Source: Malacoraja senta
Taxonomy: Eukaryota
Length of the DNA stretch: 64,000 bases
Assembly (NCBI GenBank): GCA_038087875.1
Contig: CM075991.1
Span: 5,704,001 to 5,768,000, forward strand
Direction of reading: 5' to 3'
The notes under the pieces are model-generated. The model did not search any database, had not been told where the DNA came from, and saw only the letters and a list, made by a program, of their open reading frames with translations. How positions within the stretch are numbered: position 1 is the stretch's first letter; every line of letters begins with the position of its first letter. Made by a program: the position numbers and the translations under genes. This document shows, in pieces, positions 9,787 to 59,307 of the stretch.

Positions 9787-11744
9787 ATGGAATATCCAGC
9801 AATTTACTACATAGCCGCCACTTTCTACCCTGTACTTGTGGCGGTTGGTATTCCTGGTAAGATACTGGGACGAGTAGGTTTAGTTTTGTACAGAAAAACT
9901 GCGCGGAAAGAGGCCCTTCGATCAACCGAGTCCGCGCCAACCAGCAATCCCCGCACACTGACGGCACACGCTAGGGACAATTTACAATTGTACCAAGCCA
10001 ATCAGCCTACAAACCTGTGCATCTTTGGAGTGTGGGCGGATACCGGAGATCCCGGAGAAAAACCCAAGAAGATCACGGGGAGAATGTACAAACTCCGTGC
10101 AGGATCAAACCCGGGTGGTTGGCGCTGCCAGGCAGCACATTTAACGCTGCGCACCGTGCCGCCCTGCGTGCAGTTCTCCTTCCTTTCTGTATCTGCTGCT
10201 CTGAAGAATAGTCGCTTTGATACCCAGCCCAGATGCTGCCTCAGCTGACGAGTGTCTTCGGAAGGTTCAGGCTTCAGCGTCTGTTTTATTTCTGGCATTT
10301 TGTTCTTATTAATGTGTGGTTCTTTTGTCAATCAGGTCAGTTAATTTAGAGCTAATGTTTACATTTTTTCAGCATGTAACCGTATTCAAATTGGTTCTGG
10401 TGCATATTCTTCAAGCTCTGGGTCTCATTAATACAGACTTTTCCACCAAGAGTCAGCTAATGAGGAATGTATACATGTCTGTCAACATGCCTGTTGAATT
10501 ATCACAACTAGCTGAAACACCTTCCGGGTTTTCGTTCTCTGATTCATTTGCCAGTTTTGATTTTATGACTGCGTTTCCACTTGCTACGTCTGATATGTCG
10601 GAGGAAGCAGTTCTCCCTGAGTCTAATGCTCTCTGATACAAGTTAATTTCGATTGACGCAACGACTCGAAATGACTGTGATCAGTGCGTCGTAGACTTTA
10701 GGAGGCCGACTGTAAATTGCTGCAAATTACCGACACATCTGCCTCTTCGATCAGCACCGCTCTAAGTATTTCTCCGAACGGAAATTTGGTAAACTGGATC
10801 AGGTATTTGCTCATTGAAACTAACGTTTTTTTTGGTTTCTTGCAGTTAATTTAACGGCGATTGTGATCCTCTCCCGGGGAAAATGTGGTCTCTCCAAATG
10901 CATCACCCGTTACCTAGTGGGAATGGCAACAGCGGATCTAATGGTAGTTGTCATTGTTGCTGCAATTGAACAAGTTAATTACATATACGTTTACGCTAGT
11001 TCCTTGTTCATTGCACCGGTTTGCGCTCTGAACCTAGTACTAAGGGTTGTAACAATCGACTGTTCTGTTTGGTTCACCGTCAGTTTCACTTGCGATCGTT
11101 TTATGGCGATCTGTTGTCAAAAGCTACGTGAGCGCTACAGCACCGAGAGGGCAGCGTGTGTGATTATGGTGACTGTGGCTGTCGTCAGCTGCGCCCGGTC
11201 CATTCCCTTTTACTTTGCCGTGGAGCCTTCTGTCATAATTGACAACGTGCCTTGGCGTTGCGCCTTCTCAAAGGAGTACGCCACTTTGTCGGTTTGGAAA
11301 GGCTATGAGTTACTTGACAGCATCTTAGCACCGTTGTTACCGATCGGTTTAATCCTGTTGTTCAATGGGTTAACTTGCAGACATATCATAGCGGCCAATA
11401 GAGTTCGCAGACGACTTCGGAACAGCCATGAGAACAAGAAGGATACAGAGGTGGAGAACCGGAGAAAATCGATGATTTTGCTCTTCGCTGTATCAGGCAA
11501 TTTCATAATATTTTCGATACCCTATGTGGTTCATTCTCTGACATGGCAAGCATATAATTTCTTTTACACTGATAGATATTTGAGCAGCCCGGTATATATC
11601 CTGCAGCAGTTTGGATTTATGTTGCAGATTGTCAGTATGTGCACAAACACGTGTATCTATACACTGACACAGAGGAAATTCAGGGACCAGCTGAAGAGTG
11701 GAGTGAAATATCTACTCACATTGAATGGCCGATTATGTAGTTGA
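9787..11744 (+). CDS. GPR139/GPR142-like class A GPCR, copy G1 (intact, 2 exons: 9787-9856 + 10846-11744, 322 aa)
   Basis: Exon 1 MEYPAIYYIAATFYPVLVAVGIP ends at CCTG|GTAAG. Branch-like CTAAC and pyrimidine tract TTTCTTGCAG| at 10845. Phase-1 join gives GIPVNLTAIVILS. Seven hydrophobic segments, MATADL (TM2), SVWFTVSFTCDRF (TM3), NTCIY (TM7). AATAAA at 11780-11785. Confidence 0.9.
9878..10164 (-). mobile_element. HE1-type tRNA-derived SINE in the GPCR intron; copies ~29755-30038 and 56666-56952
   Basis: Minus strand begins GGGCGGCACGGTGCGCAGCG (A box), has CCGGGTTTGATCC (B box) and a CR1-like 3' tail. Confidence 0.8.
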
Positions 11745-13411: not shown

Positions 13412-13500
13412 CTTGACTAAGTGGGAGCGGGTCCCATGTTCACACGGGAGGGCTGGTCCCCCAACGCAATATTTCACCTCTATCCACCAATTCCAATATT
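13412..13500 (-). mobile_element. Helitron-like 3' terminus; copy ~58991-59082
   Basis: Minus strand shows a degenerate GGGACCC hairpin shortly before a terminal CTAG|T (intact at 58991-58994). Confidence 0.4.
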
Positions 13501-15355
13501 AATAAATGTCTCTGTAACCTTTTATCTTTGTCTTTCCCCAAAGCTAATTTTAAACTTACGTTTCTTGTTGTTTAGAAATCTCCCTCCCATATATCTAACA
13601 TGTATTTACCATAAATGTCCAGATTGAGTCCGCTCGTAAAATAAGTCGTAAGTTAAACTTTGGGAGACTTGCCTGCTAAACACAATGACCAAAAGCACCT
13701 CTAATGCAAAATTGCAACGGATAAGAACGTAGACAGTACTAAAAAGGGCTATCATCCCCGACTGATAAGAATGCCCGCTCCTCAGCAGAATGTTTCATTT
13801 TTAGCTATTTTAACTACGTTCTATCTTGGCCATTTTCCCGTCATGCTCGCCAGTATGTGAGCTCCAGGGTTACTCAAACTATAACCTACTCATCTTCCTT
13901 ATAATTCTCACAACTCTCTACCTTTCCCCCTTTTGGCAATTGGTCACACCCAATTAATCCATATTTAACAGCACCCACTAATACACCTACTGAAAATAAT
14001 TGTTGTCTGTTAACCCCTCTTCCCACCTGCCTAACTAACATCAGGGTTTTCAACATCCTGTGAAACTAAAACAAGAACAAAGTAATCACTATCAATAACT
14101 GTACAAAAACTAATCAAACGGTGCACGTTAGTATTCAGTCCCCAGTTCCAGGCTCTTCCCCACCAAGTCCATTTTCTCAATATGTCCTCTGCTTCTCTGC
14201 CATGCATCCCAATAGGCTTAGTGCTCTCAGGCCAGTCAAGTATAACCATTTCACCCTCCTTGGTCAGTGTCTTCCAATCGGAATGGAAGTGTGGTATTTG
14301 TTGAAGTTGGTTTGCGATAAATCTTCTTAATGTCTCGTCCGAGTCATTCCGCACGACAAAGAAGCTTACTGTTATAGATTTTCCCACAGACAGTACCATT
14401 AATTTCTTGTCTCGGATAGCGATCTGTCTCGTTAAACCCCGGTTTACAATATTATGCCAACGTAGAGTACATTTCCGAGCAATCGTTCAATGCCACTTAG
14501 CAGAGGCAGCGACCTAATATTTTCCCATTTATAGGCAACACTAGCAAAATAAGAATTAGGTTTTACCTCAATCGAAAGCTTACCATTATATAGTGAATAA
14601 ATCCACAACCATCATACTCATTATTTCTTATTTGATGACTCGGTCCAATATGATGCCCCTTGGTACTTTATCCATTATCACATTACTTTCAATAGCATTG
14701 TGCATTGTTATCGAAGCTCCTTGTTTATACTGCCCAATAATATGCAACTGGTGTAGGATAAATGTCTTATTCTTCAGCTGGCGTGGGACATGGAGAACAA
14801 CTGCAAAAATAAATGTTTCCTGAGCATCTTGGTATATCCGATCCACTTGCCTCGCTATAGACAACGATCATACGTGACAGTCATATTGCATATGTTGACT
14901 CCAATTTTCCAGTTGATGATTCGATATAAAATTGGGGACTTGGTGGGTAGATACCATTAGAATGCCACCATGCACCTGACACATTAGCCAGTTGGAATAA
15001 ATACCACATACCTGTTCCCTACGCGCATTCTGAGAAATATTACTCAGTAGATTACTCAGTCTATCGTTCTGTTTATTGTGTCCTCATAGGGTTTAAGAAT
15101 TTTATCTCCCGTAAGAAAGATTTGCAATGCTAAGTGTCTCGGCATCTTTAAATCCCAGTACGGCCACTTTACACATCTTCTTTCAAACTGTTCTAATGTC
15201 ACAATAAGTTCAGCTACATCCATCACATTAACCCGTGGATAACTCTGTTGCACATCCAGCGCCCATTATCTCTATAAATTCCCTTCATGTTCTATGTGTT
15301 TTATTCATTTCAACTTCACGTTCCTTTCCACTTCCACTTCCACTTCTCGAATCAA
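13500..15355 (-). mobile_element. env: Endogenous retrovirus fragment: env TM subunit, polypurine tract and partial 3' LTR
   Basis: R-T-(TGA)-R furin-like site at 15282-15293, then EFIEIMGAGCATELST/VNVMDVAEL; WTWWGRAWNWG before a decayed anchor; PPT AAAAGGGGGAAA at 13923-13934 followed by GGTAGAG (TG>GG LTR start). Confidence 0.75.
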
Positions 15356-15360
15356 TGACA

Positions 15361-18060
15361 AGGAAAGATTGACAATGGACAACAGAGTAAGGTCAGGTCC
15401 AATTGCGAGCGGTGCGAGGGTGGAAGTGAATACGGAGGTCAAAGTACTGTGTATGAATGCGCGAAGTATATGGAATAAAGCGGACGAGTTTGAGGCTCAG
15501 TTAGAAACTGGCAAGTTTGATGTTGTGGGAATTACTGAGACATGGCTGCAAGGGGGCCAGGGCTGGGAACTGAATATTCAATGGTATACCTCCTTACGAA
15601 AAGACAAACAGGTGGGCAGAGGGGGTGGGGTTGCCCTGTTGGTGAGGAATGGAATTCAGTCCCTTGCAAGGGTTGACATTGAAACACGAGATGTGGAGTC
15701 AGTATGGATAGAACTAAGGAATTGGAATGGTAAAAATACCCAAATGGGACTAATCTACAGGCCCCCAAACAGTAGCCTGGACATAGGGCGCAAGTTGAAT
15801 CAGAAGTTAAAATTGGCATGCAGCAAAAGTAATGCTGTGGTTGTTATGGGAGATTTCAACGTGCAGGTAGACTGGGAAAATCAGGTTGGTACTGGACCCC
15901 AAGAAGGGGACTTTGTAGAGTGCCTTCGTGATGGATTCATCGAACAGCTTGTATTGGAGCCTACCAAGGAAAAGGCAATCTGGATTTAGTGTTATGTAAT
16001 GAACCGGATTTGATAAAGGACCTCGAGGTTAATGAGCCATTTGGAGGCAGTGACCATAACATGGTCAGGTTTAATCCACAGTTGGAGAGGGCGAACAGTA
16101 CATCGGAGGTGTCAGTGTTGCAGTTGTATAAAGGGGACTATGGGACCATGTGGGAGGAGCTGGCCAAAGTTGACTGGAAAGATACACTAGCAGGGATGAC
16201 AGTGGAACAAAAATTGCAGGTGTTTCTAGGAATAATACAGAAGGTGCGGGATCAGTTCATTCCTAGGAGGAAGAATGATTCCAAGGGGAGAAAGGGACGA
16301 CCATGGCTGATAACGGACGTCAGGGACAGTATAAAAATTAAAGCGAAGAAGTACAAGGTAGCAAAGATGAGCGGGAAGCAAGAGGATTGGGTAATGTTTA
16401 AAGAACAACAGAAGATAGCCAAAAAGGCAATACGGGGAGAAAAGATGAGGTACGAAGGGAAGCTAGCCAAGAATATAAAGCAGGATAGTAAAAGCTTCTT
16501 TAGGTATGTGAAGAGGAAAAAATTAGTTAAGACCAAAGTTGGACCCTTGAATACCGAAAAGGGTGAATTTATTATGGGGAACAAAGAAATGGCAGATGAG
16601 TTGAACAAGTACTTGGGATCTGTCTTCACTAAGGAGGACACAAACAATCTTCCTGATTTAATAGTCGCCAGAGGGTCTGGGGTGACAGTGGAACTGAAGG
16701 AAATCCACATTAGGCAGAAAATGGTGTTGGATAGGCTGATGGGACTGAAGGCTGATAAATCCCCAGGGCCTGATAGTCAGCATCCCAGGGTACTTAAGGA
16801 AGTGGCTCTAGAAATCGTGGATGCATTGGTGATAATTGTCCAATGTTCTATAGACTCGGGATCAGTTCCTGTGGATTGGACGGTAGCTAATGTTATCCCA
16901 CTTTTTAAGAAAGGCGGGAGAGAGAAAACGGGTAATTATAGACCACTTAGCCTGACATCGGTGGTGAGGAAGATGCTGGAGTCAATTATAAAAAATGAGA
17001 TAGCCGCACATTTGGATAGCAGTAACAGGATCGGTCCGAGTCAGCATGGATTTGCGAATGGGAAATCATGCTTTACTATTCTTCTGGAATTTTTTGAAGA
17101 TGTAACGAGGAAAATGGACAATGGAGAGCCAGTGGATGTAGTGTACCTGGACTTTCCGAAAGCATTTGATTAGGTCCCACATAGGAGATTCAATTATGGC
17201 ACATGGTATTGTGGGTAGAGTGTTGACATGGGTAGGGAAGTGATTAGCAGACAGGAAACAAAGAGTAGGGATTAACTGGTCCCTTTCAGAATGGCAGGCA
17301 GTGACAAGTGGGGTACCACAAAGCTCTGTACTGGGACCGAGGCTATTTACAATATACATCAATGATTTGGATGAAGGAATTCAAAGTAACATTAGCAAAT
17401 TTGCAGATGACACAAAGCTGGGTGGCAGTGTGAAGGGTGGGGAGGATTTTATGAGAATGCAGGGTGACCTGGGCAGGTTGGGAGAGTGGGCAGATGCATG
17501 GCAGATGAAGTTTAATGCGGATAAATGTGAGGTTATCCACTTTGGTAGCAAAAACAGGAAGACAGATTACTATCTAAATGGTGTCAAGTTGGGAAAAGGG
17601 GAAGTACAACGGGATCTGAGGGTCCTTTTATATCAGTCTATGAAAGTAAGCATGCAGTTACAGCAGGCAGTGAAGAAAGCAAATGGCATGTTGGCCTTTA
17701 TAACAGGAGGAATCGAATATAGGAGCAAAGAGGTCCGTCTGCAGTTGTACTGAGCCCTAGTGAGACCACATCTGGAGTATTGTGTGCAGTTTTGGTCCCC
17801 AATTTGAGGAAGTACATTCTTGCTATTGAGGGTGTGCAGCGTAGGATTACAAGATAAATTCCCGGGATGGCGGGACTGTCATATGCTGAGAGAATGGAGC
17901 AGCTGGGCTTGTGCACTATGGAGGATGTGCACACTGAGAAGGATGAGAGGGTATCTCATTGAAACATATAAGATTGTTAAGGGCTTGGACAAACTAGAGG
18001 CAGAAACATGTTCCCGATGTTGAGGAAGTCCAGAACCAGGGGCCACAGTTTAAGAATAAG
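15361..18060 (+). mobile_element. CR1 ORF2 (endonuclease + RT), degraded; copy 59308-~62006
   Basis: MNARSI, GITETW, YRPPNS, MGDFN, GSDHN, NYRPLSLTS, SGVPQ.SVLGP, SKFADDTKL. Confidence 0.95.
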
Positions 18061-21572: not shown

Positions 21573-21574
21573 TC

Positions 21575-22612
21575 AGGTATAGGGTGGCATTCAAATGTTC
21601 GCTACCCACCAAGTCCCCAATTTGATATCGAATCAACAACTGGAAAAAATGAGTCAAGATATGCAATATGACTGTCACGTAAGATCGTTGTCTATAGCGA
21701 GCAAAATGGATCGGATATACCAAGATGCTCAGGGAACATATATTTTTGGGGTCGTTCTCCATGTCCCACGCCAGCTGAAGAATAAGACGTTTATCCTATA
21801 CCAGTTGCATATTATTGGGCAGTATAAACAAGGAGCTTCGATAACAATGCACTATGCTCTTGAAAATAATGTGATAATTGATAAAGTATCAAGGGGCATC
21901 ATAATGTACCGATGTCATCAAACAAGGAATAATGAGTAGGATGGAGTTTGGTTCATCATTTACTCATTATAATAACGGTAAGCTTTCGATTGATGTAAAA
22001 CCTAATGCTTCTTTTGCTAGTGTTGCCCATAAATGGGAAAATATGAGGTCGCTGCCTCTGCTAAGTGGCATTGAACGAGTGGTCGGAAATGTACTCTACG
22101 TTGGCATAATATTGTAAACCGGAGTTTTACGAGACAGATCACTATACGAGACAAGAAATTAATGGTACCGTGGGTGGGAAAATCGATAACAGTAAGCTTC
22201 ATTGTCGTACGGAATGACTCGGACGAGACATTAAGAAGATTTATCGCAAACAAATTTCAACCAATACCACACCTCCATGCTGATTGGAAGTTACTGACTA
22301 AGGAGGGTGAAATGGTTATACATGACTGGGATGAGAGCACTAAGCCTATTCGGATGCATGGCAGAGAAGCAGAGGACATATTGGAGAAAATGGACTTGGT
22401 GGGAAAGAGCCTGGAACTGGGGACTGAATACTAACGTGCATCCTTTGATTAGTTGTTGTACATAATCATTCATAGTGATTACTTTGTTCTTATTTTTGGT
22501 TTCACAGGATAAGTTGAAAACCCTGATGTTAGTTAGGCAGGTGGGAAGAGGGGATAACAGACAACAATTAGTTTCAGTAGGTGTATTAGTGGGTGCTGTT
22601 TAATATGGATTA
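21575..22612 (+). mobile_element. env: Endogenous retrovirus env TM fragment (inverted relative to ~13955-14980)
   Basis: ORFs 21595-21939 and 22162-22434 match minus ORFs 14628-14864 and 14031-14399; cut just before the PPT by the DIRS element. Confidence 0.75.
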
Positions 22613-25600
22613 TACTTCGCAGTCACGTGAGTGACTACGTGAAGAACCCGCCAGCCCGCAGGCGCGTATTACGTCTAACGCATGGCGCAGCGACTAAGTT
22701 TAAAGACCTCCAGGTAAGTTCTCGAACTTAGCTTGCGGTTGTTTATCTTCGTTCTTATTACAGGTTAAGAACGAACAACTATGGACAAGGCGGGGGTGAA
22801 GTCCAGACGGGCCGCGAGAAAAACTGCTACGGAAGACCGCGGCAGTGCGATTAGCGGGCGGCCGTCGGTTTCACCATCACGGTCACTGACAGCACAGCCA
22901 GCGATTTCGGACGCGGTGCCCGTAGAAAGCACCTTGGCTACCCAGAGAGTTGGCAAGTCAAAAAATAGTCCGACAGACCGGTTGACTCGCACGAGCCCAG
23001 TCGGGAGGGTTCGCCTCCTTCAGCAGGGAACGTCCTCGGACATCTTTCCCGTATGGAGCATCTAATGGAGGAGATGCTCCAATATGATATACTCTTTGGA
23101 CGGGATTCATGTCAGCGCGGGTCTCTAGCGCCCGCGGCTGCGCCTGGTGCAGGGCTGCATTGTATCTCCCTATCTAAGGAAGGGAGTGTAGGTCATCAGT
23201 CCTGGGTTGGCTCACACTACAGTGGTATGTCGAGGGAACGCTACAAGACACAAGATCTGCGTGAAGCAGAGATACCCACTATGGTGTCGACATTTGCATT
23301 GCCGGCGCAAATCGACGAGCCACTGGACGAATAACTAGCGGCCTGCATCAATTACCTGGCTTCTCACCAGCTACGGGAAGAGGTAATGATGGAGACGGCC
23401 ACGAAATACCACACACCCAGCAACCGCGCTTCGCTAAGAGTTCTGGCCGTAAATAGCTCCATTTGTAGTTACATGGGTGGAGGCATAAAGATTCAGGAGG
23501 TTAAACTCCAAAGGATCCTGAGCCTTCTGGCATCCGGGGTCAAGGCCTTCGCCAGGTCAATGGACGGGAGCTCCCTGTCTGAGGTTCAACCGGACGCATT
23601 GGCACTGATGTGCAATGCACATTTTCAGATAAATTGCTTTTGCAAGAATGCCATTCGTCCTGTCCTCAATCCCAAGTTTGCTGGTTTATGCAGGTCGAGC
23701 AATGTGCAGCCGGCCAATTATTTATTTGGGGAAGACCTGTCCAAACAAGTCAAGGACCTGTAATCTACCAGCAACAGATGGTCTACAGGAGCCAGTACCA
23801 GCTCAAGGACCGAAAGAACCAGCCAAAGGTCTTTTATAGGACAAGGTTCAGGCCGGCCGACATCGATGATGCGCAGTTGGCGCACTCCAGTACCCTTACC
23901 CCTCAAACATCGAGGGCGGATATAAACATCGCAGATCCATCAATATCCATGGAGGTAGGTGGGTCTGGTTCTCTATGGAACATGCGGTGTGTGGGTCAAT
24001 CACAAGTTGGTGGGAGATTACGTTTCTTTTTGAATGAATGGCGTTCGATAACATCGGATATGTTCATACTGCACAGTATAGATGATTTCCAAATTGAATT
24101 TTCTGATTCACTTCCACCCACACAGCATACTCCAAACCGTACTTTGGTCCTTCACAACAAGACGGTTTGGATGTACAAATTGAAATTCAATCATTATATC
24201 CAAAAGTGTAATTGAGAAGTCGAATCATGAATCTCACCAATTTGTGTCCAATATATTTACAAAACAAAAGAAAGATGGGGGATGCCGAGTCATCCTGGAC
24301 TTGACCCGACTCAGCACCTTTGTGCAGTACAGACATTATAAAATGGAAAATGTTGTTACTGCCAAACAATTGATTTCCAAAGGACGTTATATGGCATGCA
24401 TCGATCTTAAAGATGCATACTATTCGGTGCCTATTCATAAGGATCACCGGAAATACTTAAAATTCAACTGGATGGGGCAGCTTCGGCAGTTTAAAGCATT
24501 GCCTAATAGGTTAACTTCAGCTCCCAGATTATTCACGAAATTATTAAAACCAGTTCTTGCTTTTTTAAGAGCTCAAAAACACATAGTAATGGCGTACTTG
24601 GACGATATCCTTATTATAGGCAAGACTCTGGAATTGTTTTTTTCAGCGGTCTGAGCCACCAAGCTCTTATTTGAGCGATTGGGATTTCTCATCCATCCAG
24701 TTAAATCCAAGTTGACACCATCCAAAGTTATGGAATATTTGGGATTCACTATTAACTCTGTTCATATGTCTGCAACTCTGCCTTGAAGCAAGATATTGGA
24801 GTTAATAGAGTGCTGTAATTACCTCTTAACGAAGCAGCAGCCTTCCATCCGACAAGTGGCCAGTTTAATTGGAAAATTAAATAATTGTATAAGGGGTAAG
24901 AGTGTTGTAAAAACAAGCCTGAAGGCGTTGTGTCTCAATGCAAGGAGTATTTGTAATAAGGTGGATGATTTGAATGTGCTGATAGATATTAATGACTATG
25001 ATATAGTTGGGATCACGGAGACATGGCTCCAGGGTAACCAAGGCTGGGAGCTGAACATCCAGGGATATTCAATATTCAGGAGGGATAGACAGATAGGAAA
25101 AGGAGGTGGGGTAGCATTGATGGTTAGAGAGCAGATTTACGCAATAGAAAGGAAGAACATTAGCTTGGAGGATGTGGAATCGATATGGGTAGAGCTGCGA
25201 AACACTAAGGGGCAGAAAATGCTAGTGGGAGTTGTGTACAGGCCACCTAACGGTAGTAGTGGAGTTGGGGATGGCATCAAACAGGAAATTAGAAATGCGT
25301 GCAACAAAGGTAAAACAGTTATAACGGGTGACTTAAATCTACATATAGATTGGGTGAATCAAATTGGCAAGGGTGATGAGAAAGAGGATTTCTTGGAATG
25401 TATGCGGGATAGTTTTCTAATCCAACATGTAGTGGAACCAACGAGAGAGCAGGCTATTCTAGATTGGGTATTGAGTAATGAGGAAGGGTTAGTTAGCAGT
25501 CTTGTTGTGCGTGGCCCCTTGGGCAAGAGTGACCACAATATGGTTGAGTTCTTCATTAGGATGGAGAGTGATATTGTTAATACAGAAACAAGGGTCCTGA

Positions 25601-28549
25601 ACTTAAAGAAAGGTAACTCTGAGTGTATGAGAAGTGAGTTGGCCAAGATAGACTGGCAATTGATTCTTAATGGGTTGACGGTAGATATGCAATGAAAGGC
25701 ATTTAAAGACCGTATGGATGACCTAAACAATTGTTCATCCCAGTTTGGCAAAAAAATAAATCTGGGAAGGTAGTGCATCCATGGATAACAAGGGAAATCA
25801 GGGATAGTTTCAAAACAAAAGATGAAGCGTACAAATTAGCCAGAAAAAGCAGCCTTCCTGAGGACGGGGAGAAATTCAGAGTCCAGCAGAGGAGGAGAAA
25901 TGGCTTAGTTAGGAAAGGGAAAATAGGTTATGAAAGAAAACTGGCAGGGAACATAAAAACTGACTGCAAAAGCGTTTATAGATATGTGAAGAGAAAAAGA
26001 TTAGTTATAACAAATGTAGGTCCCTTGCAGTTAGAAACAGGTGAATTGATCATGGGGAACAAGGACATGGCAGACCAATTGAATAACTACTTTGGTTCTG
26101 TCTTCACTAAGGAAGACATAAATAATCTGCCGGAAATAGCAGGTGACCGGTGGTCAAATGAGATGGAGGAACTGAGTGAAATCCAGGTTAGCCAAGAAGT
26201 GGTGTTAGGGAAATTGAATGGATTAAAGGCCGATAAATCCCCAGGGCCGGATAGGCTGCATCCCAGAGTAGTTAAGGAAGTAGCCCCAGAAATAGTGGAT
26301 GCATTAGTGATAATTTTTCAAAACTCTTTAGATTCTGGAGTAGTTCCTGAGGATTGGAGGGATAGTTAATGTAACCCCACTTTTTTAAAAGGGAGAGAGA
26401 AAACGGGGAATTACAGACCAGTTAGTCTAACGTCGGTAGTGGGGAAACTGCTAGAATCAGTTATTAAAGATTGGGTAGCAGCACATTTGGAAAGTGGTGA
26501 AATCATTGGACAAAGTCAGCATGGATATATGAAAGGTAAATCATGTCTGACGAACCTTATAGAATTTTTCGAGGATGTAACTAGTAGAAAGGATAAGGGA
26601 GAACCAGTGGATGTGATATATCTGGACTTTCAGAAGGCTTTCCACAAGGTCCCACATAAGAGATTAGTATACAAAGTTAAAGCACACGGTATTGGGGGTT
26701 CAGTATTGATGTGGGTAGAGACTTGGCTGGCAGACAGGAAGCAAAGAGTAGGAGTAAACGGGTCCTTTTCACAATGGCAGGCAGTGACTAGTAGGGTACC
26801 GCAAGGCTCCGTGCTGGGACGCCAGCTATTTACGATATATATTAATGATTTGGACGAGGGAATTGAATGCAACATCTCCAAGTTTGCGTATGACACGAAG
26901 CTGGGGGGCAGTGTTAGCTGTGAGAAGGATGCTCGGAGGCTGCAAGGTGACTTGGATAGGCTTGGTGAGTGGGCAAATGCATGGCAGATGCAGTATAATG
27001 TGGATAAATGTGAGGTTATCCACTTTGGTGGCAAAAACTGGAAAGTAGACTATTATCTGAATGGTGGCCGATTAGGAAACGGGGAGATGCAACGAGACCT
27101 AGGTGTCATGGTACACAAGTCATTAAAAGTAGGCATGCAGGTGCAGCAGGCAGTGAAGAAGGCGAATGGTATGTTAGCATTCATAGCAAAAGGATTTGAG
27201 TATAGGAGCAGGGAGGTTCTACTGCAGTTGCACAGGGTCTTGTTGAGACCACATCTGGAATATTGCGTACAGTTTTGGTCTCCTAATCTGAGGAAAGATA
27301 TTCTTGACATAGAGAGAGTACAGAGAAGGTTCACCAGACTAATTCCTGGGATGTCAGGACTTTCATATGAAGAAAGACTGGATAGACTCGGTTTGTACTC
27401 GCTAGAATTTAGAAGATTAAGGGGCGATCTTATAGAAACGTACAACATTTTTAAGGGGTTGGACAGGCTAGATGCAGGAAGATTGTTCCCGATGTTGGGG
27501 AAGTCCAGAACAAGGGGTCACAGTTTAAGGATAAGGGGGAAATCTTTTAGAACCGAGATGAGGAAAACATTTTTCACACAGAGAGTGGTGAATCTCTGGA
27601 ATTCTCTGCCACAGAAGATAGTTGAGGCCAGTTCATTCGCTATATTTAAGAGGGAGTACGGTGTGGCCCTTGTGGCTAAAGGGACCAGGGGGTATGGAGA
27701 GAAAGCAGGTACAGGATACTGAGTTGGATGATCAGCCATGATCATATCGAATGGCGGTGCAGGCTCGAAGGGCCGAATGGCCTACTCCTGCACATATTTT
27801 CTATGTTTCTATGTTTCTAAATTAGTGGCTGCTTTCCCAGCTGTACAATTTGGACCTTTGTATTATCAACAATTACAATGAGCAATGGTGCAGGCACTCA
27901 AACATCATTTAGGTCACTTTGACAGGCCCATGCAATTGACGGCTGAAGCCATTTCTGAATTACAGTGGTAGAAGTCCAATATTCAGCATTGCTCTAGCAA
28001 TATTTCGGTTGATAGTCGACCAGTTATTTTACAAACGGATGCCAGTGCTCTGGGATGGGGCGCTACTGACACCATCTCTAGCTGCGGTGGCAGATGGAAC
28101 ATGCATGAGCTATCATTATTTCAGTTACATGGTGTTAATTATTTGGAGTTACTGGCAGCTCTCTGTGGATTGAGGGCTTATTGCGGGTATATGCACATCT
28201 GCATGTTCGATTACAGATTGATAACACCACAGCGGTGGCATACATAAATCACATGGGTGGAATCAAGTCAGTATCCTGTGATAAATTGGCTAACCGCATT
28301 TGGCACTGGTGCATTGCAAGATATATTTGGGTTTCAGCTACCCACCTGCCAGGTAGGTTTAATACGGTGGCGGACAGTAGGTCATGCAAATTCAATGACA
28401 ACACCGAATGGATGTTGAATCATAGAGTGTTTAAGGATATTATTTCTAAATATGGAACACAGGATATAACTTTGTTTGCATCCAGGCTAAATCATCCGTT
28501 ACTGAAGTATGTTGCATGGGAACCAGACCCAGGGGCTGTAGCGGTAGAT
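22613..28549 (+). mobile_element. DIRS-type retrotransposon (gag, RT, RNaseH, start of methyltransferase-like domain; tyrosine recombinase missing), interrupted by CR1
   Basis: VGGRLRFFLNEW, KKDGGCRVILDL, IDLKDAYYSVPI, TSAPRLFTK, AYLDDILI, TDASALGWG, NYLELLAA, DNTTAVAYINHMGG, LFASRLN. Confidence 0.92.
24880..27818 (+). mobile_element. CR1 LINE (nearly complete ORF2 + 3' tail) nested in DIRS RT
   Basis: ORFs 24796-27722 carry APE and RT motifs; (TTTCTATG)n tail; AAATTA TSD at 24874-24879 and 27819-27824; excision restores DIRS VASLIGKL|VAAFP. Confidence 0.95.
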
Positions 28550-29663
28550 GCAATCCAAACCACTTTTGTCTCATCTGCAAACTTTCTAATCTTGCCATGT
28601 ACATTCTCATACTGTAATGTATATACATGCGAAACAGAAATGGGCCAAGCATAGCACTCTGAGGCACACCACGGGCCTCCAGTCCGAGAAACAACCTTCC
28701 ACTATTACCCTCTGTTTCCTTCCATGAAGCCAATTGTCTATACATCCGGTTATTTTTCCTTGAATCCCATGCGATCTAACCTTCCAAAGCAGCTTATCAT
28801 GTGGAACTTTATCAAATGTTTTGCTGAAGTCCAAATACACTGTATACAACATCTGCAGCTCTGCCCTCGTCAACATTTTTGGTCGCATCTTAAAATATGA
28901 ATATTTCCTATCCTGTGTAACCTATCCCTCAGAATGCTCTCTAGTAACTTTGCAACTGCAGATGTTAAGTTCACTGGCATGTAGTTCCCAGAATTTTCCA
29001 TCTTTCCTTTCTTGAGAGCTAAACTCCCCACGTGATTTCTTTTAACAGCCGCTCCGTATTCCTCACAAGTGATTCCAATATCTGCTTGGATGTGTTGATA
29101 TCATTGGAAGTCAGGAAATGCATCCATTGGTTAATTAGCATCGTCAGTGACTGTTGATCCTACGAATAATAACTTCCGAGTGGCAAGATGGTGGCGTGAA
29201 TCATTCCTTTCAAGGAAGACGTATGTCGAACGTTACTTCCCAAACTAAGATCCTTATTGCTTGATTTGACTAAATCACACTGTGCAACTAATGTTATTAA
29301 TGTTACATATTTGAAGTTCATTGTTCAGGTTAGAAATAATATTGTTCGCAGGAATAATTACATTTAAGAAACCTTTAACCTTGTGTCATAGAAATAGAGT
29401 TTTCAACATTCCCTTTTATAAAATGTGACAAAAACATTAAAATTAACAGTTCGTGTAATCCCTCGAAGACAGAAATTCCTTGCGCAATGGAAAAAAACAG
29501 TTACGGTTGATGTTTGTTAAGTGGGCTGAGGGTGATGTGCCAGAGGTCACGCTAATTGTCTCAGAGTAATGTCCTCTTTTGTATAAATCTGTGCTAAATC
29601 AATCACCACTACAGATGGACAGTTGGAAAGTTATGTGTGATTGTTCGCTGCTTCACATGGAAG

Positions 29664-31623
29664 ATGGAATATCCAGCAATTTACTGCATAGCCGCCACTT
29701 TCTACCCTGTACTTGTGGCGGTCAGTATTCCTGGTAAGATACTGGGACCAGTACGTTTAGTTTTGTACAGAAAAACTGCGCGGAAAGAGGCCCTTCGATC
29801 AACCGAGTCCGCGCCAACCAGCAATCCCCGCACACTGACGGCACACGCTACGGACAATTTTCAATTGTACCAACCCAATCAGCCTACAAACCTGTGCATC
29901 TTTGGAGTGTGGGCGGATACCGGAGATCCCGGAGAAAACCCAATAAGATCGCGGGGAGAATGTACAAACTCCGTGCAGGATCAAACCCGGGTGGTTGGCG
30001 CTGTCAGGCAGCACATTTAATGCTGCGCACCGTGCCGTACTGCGTGCAGTTCTCCTTCCTTTCTGTATCTGCTGCTCTGAAGAATAGTCGCTTTGATACC
30101 CAGCCCACATGCTACCTCAGCTGACGAGTGTCTTCGGAAGGTTCAGGCTTCAGAGTCTGTTTTATTTCTGGCATTTTTTTCTTGTTAATGTGTGGTTCTT
30201 TTGTCAATCAGGTCAGTTAATTTAGAGCTTATGTTTACATTTTTTCAGCATGTAACCGTATTCATATTGTTTCTGGCGCATATTCTTCAAGCTCTGGGTC
30301 TGATTAATACAGACTTTTCCACCAAGAGTCAGCGAATGAGACATGTATACATGTCTGTCAACATGCCTGTTGAATTATCACAACTAGCTGAAAAACCTTC
30401 CGGGTTTTCGTTCTCTGATTCATTTGCCAGTTTTGATTTTAGGGCTGTGTTTCCACTTGCTAGGTCTGATATGCCTGAGGAGGCAGTTCTCCCTGAGTTT
30501 AATGCTCTGTGATACGAGTTCATTTCGATTGACGCAACGACTCGAAATGACTGAGGTGATCAGTGCATCGTAGACATTAGGAGGCCGGCTGTAAATTGCT
30601 GCAAATTACCGACACATCTGCCCCTTCGATCAGCACCGCTCTAAGTATTTCTCCGAACGGAAATTTAGTAAACTGGATCAGGTTTTTGCTCATTGAAACT
30701 AACGTTTTATTTTGTTTCTTGCAGTTAATTTAACGGCGATTGTGATCCTCTCCCGGGGAAAATATGGTCTCTCCAAATGCATCACCCGTTACCAAGTGGG
30801 AATGGCAACAGCGGATCTAATGGTAGTTGTCATTGTTGCTGCCATTGAACAAGTTAATAACATATACGTTTACGCTAGTTCCTTGCTCATTACACCGGTT
30901 TGCGCTCTGACACTAATACTAAGGGTTGTAACAATCGACTGTTCCATTTGGTTCACCGTCAGTTTCACTTGCGATCGTTTTATGGCGATCTGTTGTCAAA
31001 AGCCACGTGAGCGCTACAGCACCGAGAGAGCAGCGTGTGTGATTATGGTGACTGTGGCTGTCGTCAGCTGCGCCCGATCGTTTCCCTTTTACTTTGCCGT
31101 GGAGCCTTCTGTCATAATTGACAATGTGCCTTGGCGTTGCGTCTTCTCAGAGGAGTACGCCACTTTGTCGGTATGGAAAGGTTATGATTTACTTGACAGC
31201 ATCTTAGCACCGTTGTTACTTATCGGTTTAATCCTGTTGTTCAATGGGTTAACTTCCAGACATATCATAGCGGCCAATAGAGTTCGCAGACGACTTCGGA
31301 ACAGCCATGAGAACCAGAAGGATACAGAGGTGGAGAACCGGAGGAAATCGATGATTTTGTTCTTCGCTGTAGCAGGCAATTTCATATTATTTTCGATACC
31401 CAATGTGGTTCATTCTCTGACATGGTAAACACGTAATTTCTTTTACACGGATAGATATTTGAGCAGCTCGGTATATATCCTGCAGCAGTTTGGATTTATG
31501 TTGCAGATTGTCAGTATGTGCACAAACACGTGTATCTATACACTAACACAGAGGAAATTCAGGGACCAGCTGAAGAGTGGAGTGAAATATCTACTCACAT
31601 TGAATGGCCAATTATGCAGTTGA
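29664..31623 (+). pseudogene. GPR139-like GPCR copy G2, nonsense pseudogene (exons 29664-29733 + 30725-31623)
   Basis: Same exon lengths and splice sites as G1, but CAA>TAA at 31426-31428 after TM6; the frame continues to the normal TGA at 31621-31623. Also L>Q in TM2, L>P in ICL2 and an out-of-frame upstream ATG at 29657. Confidence 0.88.
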
Positions 31624-34800: not shown

Positions 34801-36890
34801 AATAGTCTTATTACTCTTGCTGATAAAATTCGATTAAGTTTAAATTTCAGTAACATTATCTTATTATGTTTATCTGTAGTGGAATCTTTGGCATTATCTA
34901 ACTCTAACTGTCTAATTTCTTGTTCTAACAGCATTTGTTCTGTCTTATTCTTTATATTTTGAAAAATTTGATATGAAATTATAATTCCTCTAATAAATGC
35001 CTTTAAAGTTTCCCATAATTAAGAAGGCGAAGGACCTGGTGTATCATTTGTCGCCAAAAAAAAAATAATTTGTTGTTTTAAGTATTGATAACCTTGTAAG
35101 TCATTTAAAATATGTGTATTAAACCTCCAAAAAAAGATTTTACACGACATTCCCTCAAATTTTACTGAAAATGTCAACGGAGAGTGATCAGAAATACTAC
35201 TATTGTGGTATATTGGATTAATTGTATATGGCATTCATTTCATATCCACTAAAAAGTAATCAATTCTTGAATAAGTTTATGTACCGAAGAGTAAAACGAG
35301 TATTCCCTTCCTACTGGATTAGCAGATCTCCATACATCTGTTATATTAGTATTTTTTATATATGTATTTAGAAGTTCACTAGTCTTAGATTTTAAATTAC
35401 TCCTCCTTTGTTTTACTGATTTGTCTAAGTATGGATCTAACACACAGTTGAAGTCACCCCTATTATCACATTTTGGTAATTAAACTCTAATATGATATCT
35501 ATAATTTTACCAAAAAAATTGGGGGTTGTCAAAATTCGGAGCGTAAATATTTATCATAGTTAGTGGGGTTGCATAAATTTCTCCCGAATCTATAATATAC
35601 CTTCCCTCTTTATCTGATATAGTATTCTTTAATTTGAAAGGTATACCTTTTCGAATATGAATAGCCGTACCTCTAGATGTGGAAGTAAATGACGAATAGT
35701 ATGTTTGACCTATCCACTTCGCCTTTAATCTCATTTGTGTTTGTTGTTTCATGTGGGTTTCCTGTAAAAACATTATGTCGCTTTTCAAAGATTTTAGTTG
35801 AGCAAAAATGTTACCCCTCTTTATTGGTTCATTGGCACCCGTTAAATTCCAACTACAGAATGTGATTCCTCCATTCTTTATTTGTCTATCGTCTTGCATT
35901 ATATATCAAAATAGTATTCCTGAATCATATGGTGCAAGCAAATACCTCAGAGTTATGGGTGTTGGGTGGTCATCCCAAGTTTTTAGATTTATATTACATC
36001 TCCTTCTTGAAAAGTACCTTAATAAAAGAGAGAAAAAATGTGATATAAAGTTGAATACAAACAAAATAAGCAAATACAAGTCTTTCTAGTGATTTAAAAA
36101 AAATAGTGATGTTAAGGTATCTAACAAAAGATACCTTAAAGGCAAGTAGCCACCTAAGGTGGCGAAACATTTATGGACTTCCGTTGATGTTGTTTTACAT
36201 TGAGCTCCAATCCCTTAATAAAACCTCATAAAAAGCTACAGACCGTTTCATATCTTATTTATTCTTATTTAATTTTATCAAACTGGCACCAGTGAAAACC
36301 GAAAACATTCAGAAAAATATATTTTAAAGAATATATATATATATATAAATATAAGTATATATGCCTTTCCAATTTATCTAACCTTAATCTAGTCTAAACT
36401 TTACCATAAATGTCCACCCAAGATTCTTACGTAATTCTTACCCATCCTTTAACTGCCATATAAGCAGGTACCAAGGGGTTAAACAAAACCTAATTCCTGG
36501 ATCTTTTCCAGGTTTATGCTGCGCCTAACTCCTTCCCACACCAGAAAAGTAGGTTAGTAATGTTATAAACATTTTGCTTGGTTACTATTTATAAGCATAT
36601 ATAATTTATAAGTATATATCATTAATATTAATTCATTTCCCTTTTTGAATATATAAAATCATAATTATATACACTCCCATTATCTCCTTCCCCGTCTCAT
36701 GGTTTATTCATGATTTGTTCATTTTACTACATACATTCACGAGTAATTAGTATTATTAAATTTGTTAAAATAATTGGTTAATTATAATTAGAATATAATG
36801 GTTAGATATTTTCTTAAATCAACAGTTTTTATATTCCAATTAGTATTATCTCGTTCCATGTCCATTATACATTCCCTCATTACTTCTGTA
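31848..36890 (-). mobile_element. Decayed L1 (L1-A): ORF2 from 35899, inter-ORF region, 3'UTR; ORF1 absent
   Basis: CSWNLTGANEPIKR, LQETH, SDHSP, QGCALSP, LYADDILL, many frameshifts; A-rich tail at the G2 3' flank. Confidence 0.93.
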
Positions 36891-37187
36891 TCTTCAACGT
36901 CAATTCAACGTCAACGTCAATCTTCAATGAGATGTTTTTTGTAGCCTCTTCCTGACCCTCCAATTGAACTTGAACTAACTTATCAATGGACTTATCAAAA
37001 CTTATCAAAAGACTTGGAATCTGATGAAGAATATTCAGATGAAGATCAGATGTAATGTAAACAAATAAATTGGGGAAATAAATGATTATATAAAGTTTTA
37101 TTTTAATGTCGATGGTTTCACTGTTTATTTGGTCAAATTATTTAAACACTTGTGATCATGACGTGCTGGTGAATGACAGTGCGACAG

Positions 37188-37478
37188 TCCACCCACCCAT
37201 CCACACATATAAACATACATGCATACATACACACATCCACACACATATCCATCCGTACGCACACTTCCGTGCATGCACACACATACACATACATTCACAC
37301 ATATATCCACACACACACACATCCACACATCCATCCGCACGCAGACGTACATGTACACATCCATGCATGCGCATACATCCACACACATACATCCATACAT
37401 ACATCCACACATCCATCCACACATCCATCCATCCACATATACATACACACTTAAATCCACACATCCACAGATACACCT
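37188..37478. repeat. Degenerate (CA)n/(CATC)n/(CATA)n microsatellite
   Basis: Directly visible low-complexity tract. Confidence 0.95.
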
Positions 37479-37867
37479 TTGATAGTTAATAATAATAATA
37501 CATTTTATTTGTACAGCGCATTTCTTTTTTTTAATTTTTTTTATTTTATTAGAAGTTAATACAATATAAAACAATACAGTGGCACATAATTTGGGTGCCA
37601 ACTATGTCATAACGTAATGCATTCTATGTACAACCTCTAGTTTTATGTTTTTGAAAAGGAGGTAAAAAATAAAAAATAAAAAATAAAAACATAGAGAAAA
37701 GAAAGTGGAAAAATAAATAGTAGAAAATAGAAAAACGTGAAGTGTGTATATAAGAAAAGAAAAAATAGAAAGTAGAAATAGTAGAAAAAGACCCTTAAAA
37801 AAGAAAATTTCAAATCTTTGTTTGGAGATGTAAATCTATCCACGACCTGACCTGAAATCAGTAATCT

Positions 37868-40800
37868 TTACGGTACTGCTGCATCACATGATTCCAAAAA
37901 GTCGATGAAAGGGGACCAACTCCTTAAGAATTGGTCATATTTATCTATTAGGCCGAGTCTCATTTCTTCAAGGTGTGCTATGTCCGTCATATTCCTAATC
38001 AACATTTTAATAGTTGGTATAGCTGTATTTTTCCAAAATTTATGTATCAATTTCTTTCCAATTATTAACCCATAATTAAAGAATACTTTTTGGTCTTTGT
38101 TTAAATTGATATCTTCTAATATTATTCCAAATATAATCCATTCCATATTAGGTTCTATTCTTGACTTGAAGAGCTTTGTAAATATATCAAATATATCGCT
38201 CCAATTCAACTTTGTACATCCTACAAATGAATGTGTTATATTGGCATTTTGAAACAAACATTTATCGCATCTGGGAGAGACATTTGGGTAAAATTCATTC
38301 AACCTCGTTTTTGAATAATATATTCTATGTAATAATTTAAATTGAATTAAATTATGTCTTGCATTAATGGAACAATTATGTGTATTCATCAGATACTTTT
38401 CCCATCTATCTTTCGGGATCTTTAATATTAGTTCATGTTCCCAATCTTCTCTTAGTGCCTCTGTTGAGGGTAATTCTCTATTTAATATACTATTATAAAA
38501 ATATGACATTAGTTTTTCTGAATCAGCCTTAATATTCATTGCTTCTTCTAAAGGGTCTAAAAATATAGTTTGAAATCTATGTATATATTTCTTCATAAAG
38601 TCACATATCTGTATATATTTAAAATATTGATTATCATTCAGTTTAAATTTTAATTTTAATTGTTGAAATGATAACAATTTGCCCAGTTCATACATATCTC
38701 CTACTTTCCTAATCCCTAATCTATCCCATTGTTTATATGTATTGTCGATAAGAGATGGTTTGAATGCAGGATTATTCAGAATTGGGGTTAATACTGATAG
38801 ATTATTTAATTTCAAGGATAATTTTATTTGTTTCCAAATTCTTATTGTATTGTGAATAATTGGGTTCTTCTTATATATTATACTATTCAATTTTATTGGT
38901 GAGAACAAGATCGTTCCTATATCGTACGGGAAACACTCGTCTTTTTCCATTCTTATCCACTCCGACGGGTGAGTTGAACTATCCAACCAGTACATTATGT
39001 TCTTAATATGCACTGCCCAGTAGTAATACGTAAAGTTAGGTAGTGATAAACCCCCAGCTTCTTTAGGTTTACACAAATGCTTTCGTTCAATTCTGTGTGC
39101 TCTATAATCCCATATAAAATTAGTGATATTAGAATCTAGTTTTTTGAAAAAATATTTCGGAATATATATTGGGATCGCTTGAAACAAATATATTAATTGT
39201 GGTAAGAAAGTCATTTTTATAGCGTTAATTCTACCTATCAATGAGAGTGGGAGCGTTTTCCAAAATTTAATCATAACATTCAATTTATTTAATAGTGGCA
39301 TAAAATTGGCGCTAAATAATGATTTGTGTCTTCTCGTAATTTGAATACCTAAATACTTGAATTTTTCTGTTGCAATTTTGAAAGGGAATTTTAATAAGTG
39401 TCTCGCATCCTATGGTTTTAAAGACATGATTTCGCTTTTATTCCAATTTATTCTATATCCTGAAAAAGAACCAAATTCCTCAATTAGTGTTAATAAGGTG
39501 GGAATACTCGTTTGTGTATTAGTAATATATAAAAGAATATGATCAGCATATAATGAAATTTTATTCTTTGAGTCCTTGGTGTTATATCCGTGAATATTCG
39601 GATGATTTCTAATCCTTTCAGCCAGCGGTTCTATCATAAGGGCAAATAGCAATGGTGATAAGGCACAACCCTGCCTATTACCCCTTGATAAATAAAAATT
39701 TGAAGATAACATATTGTTAGTTAATATTCTTGCCGTAGGTTTATCATAAAGTAGTTTAACACATCTAATAAAATTTTCTCCCGTATTAAATTTTTCGAGT
39801 ACCTTATATAAATACTGCCATTCTACCTGATCAAATGCCTTCTCTGCATCCAGCGTAACGACTGAAATATCTTCAATGTCCTCTTTGTGAGAGTTCATTA
39901 TATTGAAAAGCCTTCTCAAGTTATTAAATGATTGTCTTTTGGGTATAAATCCCGTTTGATCCGGGTTTACCAATTTATTAATATAATTATTCAGTCTTCT
40001 TGCTAGAATCTTTGCTAAAATTTTCTGATCCGTATTTAAAAGTGATATAGCTCTGTAAGAACCCGGTTCATCTAAATCTTTATCTTTTTTGGGTACAAGC
40101 GTTATTGTTGATTCTGCTAAAGTTTCTGGTAGTTTATTTTCGGTATACGCCTGCGTGTATAAATTGAGTAATCTTGGTACAAGTGACTCCTGAAAGCGTT
40201 TATAAAATTCATTACTAATACCATCTGGTCCTGGGGTCTTCCCAATTTTCAATTAGTTTATTATTTGTTTTATTTCTTCACTAGTAATCCGTGCTCCTAA
40301 TTCCTCTTGTTCTAAACGATCCAATTTAGGGAGGTTGCAAAGATCTAAACAATTTGTAATTTTACTATCATCTGTATTTATTTTAGTTGTGTATAAATTA
40401 TGATAAAATTGGGCAAACCTTTTATTAATATCCTTTGGTAATGTTAGAAGCTCACCCTTATCAGATTTAATTTTAGTGATAGTATTTGCCTTTTCTTGTT
40501 GCTTCAGTTGCCTCGCTAATAATTTATGTGGCTTATCCCCAAATTCGAAGTGTGCCTGTTTTGTAATTTGGAATAGTCTTATTACTCTACCCGATAATAT
40601 TCTATTGAGTTTATATTTCAATAAGGTTATCTTATTATGTTTATCTATAGTTGGGTCACTTGCATTGTCCAGTTCTAGTAATTTTATTTCCTGTTCTACC
40701 CTCTGAAGTTCACTTTTATTTTCTTTATTTTGATAACTTTGATAAGAGATTATAACACTGCGAATGTATGCCTTAAAGGTTTCCCATAATAGCGATACAG

Positions 40801-41671
40801 AAATACCCGGCGTATCATTTGTCTCGAAAGAAAATGGTGTTTCTTCTTTTATATACTCATAACCCTGCGGGTTATTTAATATTTGTGCGTTGAATTTCCA
40901 AAAAGATTTTATACCCGGCATTCCCTCGATTTTAAGTATAAAAGTCAGTGGTGAATGATCGGAAATAATACTATTATGATATGATGGTTTAATTGTATAC
41001 GGGATTAATTTTGTATCCACTAAGAAATAGTCAATTCGTGAATAAGTTTTATGAGGCGACGAGTAAAACGAATATTCCCTTCCAATTGGGTTTGCTATTC
41101 TCCAAACGTCAGTTATGTTATTATTTTTTATATAAGTATTTAAAAATTCACAGGTCTTAGTTTTAACTAGACGCTTCCCTACCTTTATTGATTTATCTAA
41201 GTATGGGTCTATAACACAATTAAAATCTCCCCCCATTATAATATTTTGATAATTATGCTCTGCAATTATATCTAGTATTTTCATAAAAAATTGGGGATTA
41301 TCAAAATTAGGCGCATAAATATTTATCATAGTTAATGGTGTATTGTAAATTTCTCCCGTGACTATAACGTATCTTCCCTCTTTATCAGATATGGACTTCT
41401 TTAATTTAAAAGGTATACCTTTCCGAATTATAATGACCGTGCCTCTTGCTTTAGAAGTGAATGAGGAGTAGTAGGTTTGACCTATCCAGTTTGCCCTTAA
41501 TCTGATCTGCGTTTGTTGTTTCAAATGCGTTTCTTGTAGGAAAGCAATATCAATGTTTAATGATTTTAATTGTGCCAGAATTTTACCCCTCTTAATTGGC
41601 TCATTCGCACCTCTAATGTTCCAACTACAAAAAGTGAGACCTCCGGTGTTTATTCGACTATTATCTTGCAT
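37868..41671 (-). pseudogene. L1 ORF2p (EN-RT-Cys), disrupted by frameshifts near 40253 and 39400
   Basis: Three consecutive ORFs of 472, 280 and 477 aa; catalytic YADD reads YADH. Confidence 0.92.
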
Positions 41672-43702: not shown

Positions 43703-43899
43703 CCGATTTTTACCGGTAAAATCGTTTTAAATCCCGATTCCACCGGCACCGTCTGATGACATCAGTACCCACGAGGTTCAGCAATCCCGGTAAGAGTTTT
43801 TAAATCGATCCTGGCGTAGGAACCGAGTTTATACACGATTTGTCGGGAGCAGAGCTCTGTGCAGCTGTCTTACTGCTTCATAGCAGCCACCGGAAGTCC

Positions 43900-45040: not shown

Positions 45041-45622
45041 GAGAGCAGAACCTTCGTGCCAAGGTCTTTAAGTCTGGTAAGCACAGACACACACACAAAC
45101 TAGATACTCAAACAAAGCAACACTTTTAGGGTTATTTTAGGTTAAAGGTAATAGCCCTCATTTGCAAAGGCACCATCGGTGGGTCTCTAACATAAATATA
45201 GGCTCATTGTAGCTTAAAATGAATACTCATCGAGAAAACATCAGAGCATTCGATTCTTGGTCAGGATTGACATTTATATCAGAAATCAGACAGGTCTCTT
45301 ACAGGTCTGTCACCCAGCCTGGCACTGCCCCAGTCCCACTATGGCAGTTAACCCTACACTCCACACTATGGCAGTCAATGGGGTTCAGTAAACGGGGTAA
45401 CACAGAGGATCTGCCCTGACCCTTAAATTAGGCAGGTTCATGAGCCCTTAAAACCTGGGACCTCTGCTGCAGTCTCATTAAATTTCCTATTAAAGCGACA
45501 GGAAGATGCCTTGCAGGACTGCCCCCCAGCCTGGAACTGCCCCAGTCCCACCATGGCCGCGACCCCACCTCTGCACAATGGCAGTCAGTGAGGTTCTGTA
45601 AAGAGAGGAAACCACAAGAACT

Positions 45623-46605
45623 GTGTTTTTATTCCTTTCCACTTCAACTGTTCTATTAAAAAGATATGGAATAATTCCCACGTGGGTGTTGAGCACCATT
45701 CCGCAATTTCCAACCCCGGAAGGTTCAACGTCACCAGAATGTGACGGGAATGGGGAACAGAAGTTACCTTTTCTTCCTTCGGGGGCATCACGTACCCGTG
45801 ACAATCTACCACCTTAACATCCTCATCACAGAGGGTTGGGCTCACGGCAGTTGTGGCTCTGGATAAGGGAGTTGACCATCTATTTAACCACACCATGCCA
45901 CCTTGATCTCCACATACTACAGTAATGGGGTCTTCGGAATTACTTTGATTTATAATAAACCGCATTTGTCTCTCTCTCCTTTGATCCCCAGGGAGCCCCA
46001 AACACTACAATTCCAGCAATTCCACGCAACATTTTTGCCCTTCACATTGCACCGCTTCCTCTTCCAATAATGTAGCTCAATTTGTGCAAGTGACTGTATT
46101 TACATCATTAACAACTGTATTCATTCCATCAATTTTCAGTTAGGGTTTCTGATGATTCAATGTTGTGCCGTTGGAGCACTCTTGACTCCAGCCTGATGCA
46201 TGCATTATGTGAAACCCTGTGAAAATAAAAACAAATCCAGACCCTTGCCAGTTGTGGTAGTTCAATTCTTCCTTTATGGTTTATACTGTTTCTACTGAGT
46301 TCAATGTTTCCATTTAGCAGTCCTATTCATGTCAACGAGAAAAGATATTTCACCTTACAATTTAACACCATGTTGCCCACCCACCAGGGCTGGAGAGCAG
46401 CCCATTCCGGGAGAATTCTAACCATTACCTGATTTCCGTTCTTCGACCTTTTAGCTTAAATGCTTACTTTTCCTTTTCCTAATATTTGATCCTCTACTGA
46501 ACAAATAACTCATAATGAAGTTGAAGACATTTATTTACTAACTCTTGGATGTACCCAATATTATTCCATTTCCATTGCAGGCATGTGCTCCTATCGTTTT
46601 TATAT
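45623..46605 (-). mobile_element. Endogenous retrovirus fragment: integrase C-terminus + env leader/SU
   Basis: GNQVMVRILPEWAALQPWWVG...GEISFLVDMNRTAKWKH*TQ*K (GPY/F-type integrase tail), then a nearly open Cys- and N-glycosylation-site-rich frame of ~200 codons; overlaps the TM piece via TTCCTTTCCACTTC (45632-45645 = 15321-15334). Confidence 0.65.
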
Positions 46606-46788
46606 CTTCAGTAGGTGGATAACTCACTGATATACAGAGAATTGTGAGGTGTTGCATTTTGGGACGTCGAACAAGGGCAGGACATACACAGTAAATGGTA
46701 GGACTCCGGATAGTGTTGTAGAACAGAGGGATCTAGGAGTACGTGCATCGTTCCTTGAAGGTTGAGTCGCGGGTAGATAATTTGGTCA

Positions 46789-58534: not shown

Positions 58535-59307
58535 CGTGTAACTCTGATAGCAACTTGGATGAAATTTCAAATAAATGTCTTTAACAATTCGTACGTTCGG
58601 TAAAATGCCACAAAGTCAGTGCAGGTATGCGCTTGACAACCGAGAACCCGGTATACTCACTTAAATTGGTCACGTTTGGAAAGTGTAGACACATGCTACC
58701 TGTTGCAGTTGTGATGTTGCATTGGTGGAATTATATTCCAAACCACTGGATCTTTGATCGCTGCAACATACTTTGTAATATCTGGAGAATATAATAGAAC
58801 TCAGAACTGCAAGTCTGGTGTCAGATGAATTGAACCGAAATATTTCGGTTTTCCATAGAAATACATCATTCCTGTGGACTAATGGTTCACCAGCGAAACA
58901 TTTCGCCGCTCGTAACACAACTAAAATGTAGCAGCTGGTGAAAGAACACTGTAAAGCGGAGATTGTAGTTTTTACTAGTTTTAGTATAAACTAGACTAAT
59001 TGTGACGCGTTGGGTCCCATGTTCACACGGGAGGGCTGGTCCCCCAACGCAATATTCCACCTCTCCACCAATTCCAATATTAATTAATGTCTCTGTAACC
59101 TTTCATCTTTATCTTTCCCCAAAGCTAACTTGAAACGTAAGTTTCTTGCTGTTTAGAAATCTCCCTCCTATATATCTAAAATGTATTTACCATAAATGTC
59201 CAGATTGAGTCCGCTCGTAAATTAAGTCGTATGTTGAACTTTGGGATACTTGCCTGCTAAACACAGTGACCAAGAGCAACTCTAATGCAAAATTGCTTAG
59301 AGGAAGG

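Follow-up and report, generated by a model that had tools for sequence, protein, structure and literature searches.

A decayed endogenous retrovirus of Malacoraja senta with a non-gamma envelope of predicted F-like class

The DNA analyzed here, referred to as the window, is a 64,000-nt stretch of the Malacoraja senta genome (contig CM075991.1, positions 5,704,001 to 5,768,000). On its minus strand it carries part of a retroviral envelope (Env) gene followed by a polypurine tract (PPT) and part of a long terminal repeat (LTR). These features probably represent the decayed 3' end of an old, multi-copy endogenous retrovirus (ERV) with a non-gamma Env of predicted class Ib (F-like) architecture, from a virus that was likely of orthoretrovirus type. 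The F-like class is supported indirectly, solely through an intact shark homologue. The window copy itself is a dead, non-functional retroviral remnant, made up as follows:

13960..15345, minus strand: env remnant, comprising the end of the surface subunit (SU), a broken basic cleavage motif, the fusion-peptide and helical region, a beta-rich ectodomain, a Trp-rich membrane-proximal motif, the anchor and a short tail
13923..13934, minus strand: PPT, AAAAGGGGGAAA
13494..13922, minus strand: truncated 3' LTR, corresponding to nt 13-457 of the 697-nt family LTR at 76%

The env remnant is interrupted by several stops and frameshifts, with 21-41 stops per frame and a longest open stretch of 151 aa in the coding frame. 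Its motifs are spread over the three minus-strand frames, where all those quoted in an earlier note on this DNA were located. The basic cleavage motif (15305-15282) contains the in-frame stop described in that note, and the Trp-rich motif, WTWWGRAWNW, lies at 14171-14142. From the basic motif to the end of env we measured ~438 codons, not the ~415 given previously; the ectodomain of the transmembrane subunit (TM) accounts for ~390. The PPT is present 3' of env as proposed. The LTR start placed after it was correct in that an LTR is present, with similarity aligned over 13910-13494, but this LTR is truncated and begins GG, whereas most family copies begin TG. Neither a CX6CC nor an immunosuppressive domain (ISD)-like motif was found in any of the three sense frames, in agreement with the proposal of an Env without these gamma-type features. 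No gag, pol or 5' LTR of the env family adjoins env within the window.

Searches with the remnant itself were uninformative. Pfam returned nothing near cut-off for 7 env pieces, and no match was obtained in word-indexed homologue searches with a piece of the window and with A3, in PDB sequence searches with A2, A3, A6 and A7, or in an Atlas search with the 151-aa piece. A fold of the broken copy (X at stops, ~32 out-of-frame residues) reached pLDDT 39.5 and had no Foldseek match. PF00523 and PF03408 gave nothing above cut-off in the skate's own genome, where the controls were silent too, and PF00523 had no sequence match among 26 proteins scanned. A profile search, in turn, recovered 10 homologues; the 9 with a named host are all from sharks or a ray. 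In tblastn, homologue P0003 matches the env remnant at 5e-17, compared with 0.03 for the best of 30 shuffles, which places the similarity beyond chance.

The homologues include Env-like proteins of Mustelus asterias (LOC144497276, P0012), Scyliorhinus torazame (XP_072331073.1) and Heterodontus francisci (XP_067912921.1), which are homologous to the remnant along TM including the Trp-rich motif and likewise have a single basic cleavage site and no CX6CC. They differ in sequence (~15-32% identity), are labelled uncharacterised or hypothetical, and form a family without a name. CX6CC and ISD motifs were absent from all 5 homologues scanned. P0012 has the layout signal peptide, RXKR, fusion peptide, coiled coil and transmembrane segment. 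In a separate case, an Env-family piece makes up residues 34-113, at the N-terminal end, of P0008 (Pristis pectinata XP_051879492.1), a protein annotated as a TRP channel; this is either a gene-model error or an exonised env.

An intact 714-aa shark Env reached through the profile search aligns along the remnant (hhalign 99%). It has a signal peptide, 252 residues before its single cleavage site, and an extra domain at the N-terminal side. Its predicted model has a pLDDT of 51, falling below 50 over most of residues 430-611. With this model, Foldseek ranked the F proteins of RSV and henipavirus first in the PDB and the Env of walleye dermal sarcoma virus (WDSV) first among viral models, with foamy Env lower. 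The structural match to fusion proteins anticipated earlier was obtained with the model of the homologue and not with the remnant alone. Class Ib architecture is taken as defined in PMC11468914. Its nested core, a pre-cleavage strand pairing with a post-cleavage sheet and a helical bundle, is found in the homologue's predicted model and is thereby predicted to be held in common with foamy Env and pneumo/paramyxovirus F. For the beta-rich domains I/II, the length of the ectodomain fits, in a part of the model that largely coincides with the low-pLDDT region.

Class Ib membership would imply the following course of fusion, which we infer for the ancestral Env. After a signal peptide, an SU of ~200-250 residues would contribute its last strand and helix to pairing with TM, as F2 does with F1, and its Cys-rich N-terminal part would likely be receptor-binding. 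Furin-type cleavage would free the fusion peptide, the long helical region would extend, and the chain with its beta-rich domains would refold to a hairpin, all in a protein presumed to lack the gamma-type SU-TM isomerase disulfide.

Further copies in the genome support the retroviral origin claimed in the earlier note. A genome search with the family LTR (~700 bp) gave 964 candidates, of which 40 were scored. Across copies the order runs from an LTR and a tRNA-Ser primer site, through a gag with zinc knuckle and what is left of pol, to env, the PPT and a second LTR. Other copies carry LTRs and remnants of gag and pol, and the refuting case named in the earlier note, copies not flanked by pol and LTRs, did not arise. 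The primer site complements the 3' terminus of a tRNA-Ser gene in the same genome. A 5-bp target duplication is exact in 3 of 6 insertions, has one mismatch in another, and is unclear in the remaining 2. Duplications of 5 bp and tRNA-Ser sites are typical of class III (HERV-S). An intact R-T-R-R occupies the cleavage position in 3 of 15 family copies scanned. 5' of env, the dispersed copies retain a gag remnant with a CCHC knuckle (in L042 and L043; Pfam zf-CCHC 1.2e-5) and remnants of the reverse transcriptase (RT) thumb/connection, RNase H and integrase.

Neither protease nor RT palm of the family was found in 22 loci. Palm scraps occur in 2 of 25 loci fetched through the thumb region, both without env, and the idea that the family never had RT was therefore dropped as an absolute statement. 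In place of protease/RT there is a ~0.9 kb AT-rich stretch (L034:3773-4660; GC 0.35; ~79% between copies), also present in L025, L030, L033, L035, L036, L039, L043 and L051. Copies that lack pol retain it as well, and no clear reading frame runs through it; it is a possible cis element of a non-autonomous sublineage.

Dispersed env copies lie 0.22-0.33 Kimura two-parameter (K2P) units from the window copy (5 compared). LTR distances are 0.031 and 0.067 for the two-LTR copy L025; a tandem pair on C9 has 0.275. Han's assumed rate (PMC4422223) would give L025 an age of roughly 70-150 My. L034, L035 and L029 (C9:36.82-36.85 Mb) are two tandem proviruses with a common middle LTR. A solo family LTR (L049, L050) scored near-identically on ~30 small contigs, i.e. 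it was captured in another tandem repeat. Loci L062-L067 belong to other ERV families of the genome, with gamma-type or other, unrelated Envs.

The family integrase does not discriminate between retroviral groups. The profile of the family RNase H scores 3e-15 with XMRV/MLV and 7e-4 or worse with lentiviruses; its 20 matches (E<=0.1) include no foamy chain. In an unrooted tree without reference rows, the family's 4 rows fall on a branch of their own (99/98) relative to 16 other ERV rows from the same genome. Of 20 loci chosen by RNase H similarity, 18 lack env of the family and 2 are family relics. At L030:2820-1186 the family env runs straight into an RNase H that comes from a different ERV; considered as a family member, this downstream RNase H was assigned to another ERV in the tree.

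RT survives only in scraps, and the undescribed elasmobranch lineage suggested in the earlier note is unproven: the env family may instead fall within one of two known clades, that of snakehead retrovirus (Huo) or that of the epsilonretroviruses (Mu). Within the orthoretroviral reading, an epsilon-related ERV with a WDSV/WEHV-type Env, which would make it the walleye viruses' relative in sharks, is a sub-case that we consider possible but not probable. WDSV Env was the top viral-model match, epsilon Env is non-gamma as well and known as distinct and uncharacterised (PMC3758190, PMC9967133), and the MLV-type RNase H is consistent with class I. Epsilon-like and snakehead retrovirus (SnRV)-like ERVs are both known in chimaera (PMC4422223; PMC6001957). 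However, the Env of WDSV and WEHV-1 is much longer (1159-1317 aa, WDSV 1159) than the family Env, no sequence-level link was seen, and those viruses have accessory genes not seen in this family. The separate RNase H branch also weighs against this placement, as do the 5-bp duplication and tRNA-Ser site, which are reminiscent of class III. SnRV and clade Huo, including CmiERV lineage I, are a deep orthoretroviral lineage of fish that also occurs in cartilaginous fish (PMC6001957, PMC4422223, PMC12193657). In SnRV the Env tail is 136 aa long and env is followed by a 3' ORF (PMC12193657), whereas in this family the tail is short and env adjoins the PPT; a long tail and 3' ORF may be no requirement for clade Huo.

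It could also be argued that the Env, though non-gamma, has another fold, the F-like matches arising from long helices in a weak model. We consider this improbable. Rather than on the tail helix, the VIA matches are centred on region 190-425, a mixture of strands and helix in which a pre-cleavage strand is paired with a post-cleavage strand. The Foldseek results from two libraries and a sequence-feature search agree on the F-like class. A wide VIA search was filled with coiled coils and spoke neither way.

A true lokiretrovirus or foamy-like virus, as suggested by the earlier description of a foamy/loki/F-type Env, would extend lokiretroviruses to cartilaginous fish, which are not among the hosts named in the available text of PMC7947760. 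Lokiretrovirus Env has the layout and F-like class predicted here (signal peptide, basic cleavage site, fusion peptide, coiled coil, anchor; PMC7947760), and foamy Env is among the fold matches of the shark homologue. Of that description the F-like class stands, through the homologue, while foamy or lokiretroviral identity is very unlikely. Lokiretroviral and foamy RNase H form one group apart from other retroviruses (PMC7947760), unlike the RNase H of this family, which is MLV-like by best match, and neither PF00523 nor PF03408 matched. Lokiretroviral RT is sister to that of all other retroviruses, and of the RT palm this family keeps short scraps. Foamy viruses have gag without a Cys-His knuckle (10.1101/2024.07.05.601823) and a 4-nt target duplication (PMC5210030), in contrast to the CCHC knuckle and 5-bp duplication seen here. 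They also carry accessory genes after env, for which this family, with env ending ~30 nt from the PPT, has no room. The foamy Env also includes a leader subunit and spans the membrane a second time, and its receptor domain is inserted ahead of the cleavage site; in the shark homologue the extra domain is N-terminal. The virus was thus likely neither a foamy virus nor a lokiretrovirus.

Related sequences and a neighbouring element in the window are listed below:

15360..18060, plus strand: long interspersed element (LINE), presumably CR1-like, adjoining the 5' end of the env remnant and outside the provirus
21573..22612, plus strand: second TM-coding copy, inverted, 91% identical, K2P 0.084
45601..46650, minus strand: SU-coding half with the C-terminal end of integrase, ending just before the cleavage motif
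59075..59295, minus strand: fragment of the LTR, nt 218-457, within the array unit that follows, where the env part is deleted

Two of these had been named in the earlier note for a consensus with the env remnant. The first, given as 21575-22612, is a further TM copy. The other, given as 45623-46605, belongs to the same env family but is its SU half: 45601-46650 shows no similarity to the TM part, whereas it resembles the SU region of dispersed copies at 65-77%. The window lies inside a tandem array (repeat 46.8 kb) with intronless frames for rhodopsin-type G protein-coupled receptors (GPCRs). These frames, some broken, are at 10824-11741, 30703-31425 and 57614-58531, and the array continues on C15, C1302 and C506, whose units account for most of the near-identical env matches. 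Array env copies are 0.084-0.085 K2P from the window copy (2 compared), and the env deletion point in the next unit is 59296/59308. In array unit L075, SU and TM are 3.4 kb apart, divided precisely at their junction by an insertion that has inverted ends; this insertion (L075:384-3796) is likely a DNA transposon with nested material inside. Elsewhere in the window, 22613-29000 and 35500-43726 hold an RT-bearing element, which we take to be DIRS-like and which a LINE interrupts, together with a long L1/Tx1-like element whose open frames are long.

This arrangement would be explained by a single old insertion beside a GPCR gene, with later insertions splitting the SU/TM junction; the split provirus would have lost its 5' half and then been copied passively with the ~47 kb array. 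That the host retained the env half because it served some function next to the GPCR genes is hardly credible despite its presence in many array units, given the stops in every frame, the separation of SU and TM, the env deletion in one unit, and the nature of the units as near-identical segmental copies.

F-like envelopes have been published for foamy viruses and lokiretroviruses only, and a survey of anamniote Envs was limited to the gamma type (10.1101/2021.11.23.469661). Our literature search, which covered papers outside subscription, found none on an F-like Env in shark or epsilon-type retroviruses. The badly decayed window copy contributes host range and anatomy and not decisive data; the intact shark homologues make the F-like reading open to structural test. 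An F-like Env on a backbone of MLV-type RNase H and zinc-knuckle gag bears on the four env-origin scenarios of Wang and Han. Tentatively, the family may represent an old, unnamed orthoretroviral lineage of sharks and rays, with a compact F-type Env homologous to that of the walleye epsilonretroviruses. If this is true, a class Ib fusogen would be the ancestral retroviral envelope, kept in foamy viruses, lokiretroviruses, epsilonretroviruses and the fish lineages discussed here, while the hairpin Env of gamma/beta type would be a later replacement.
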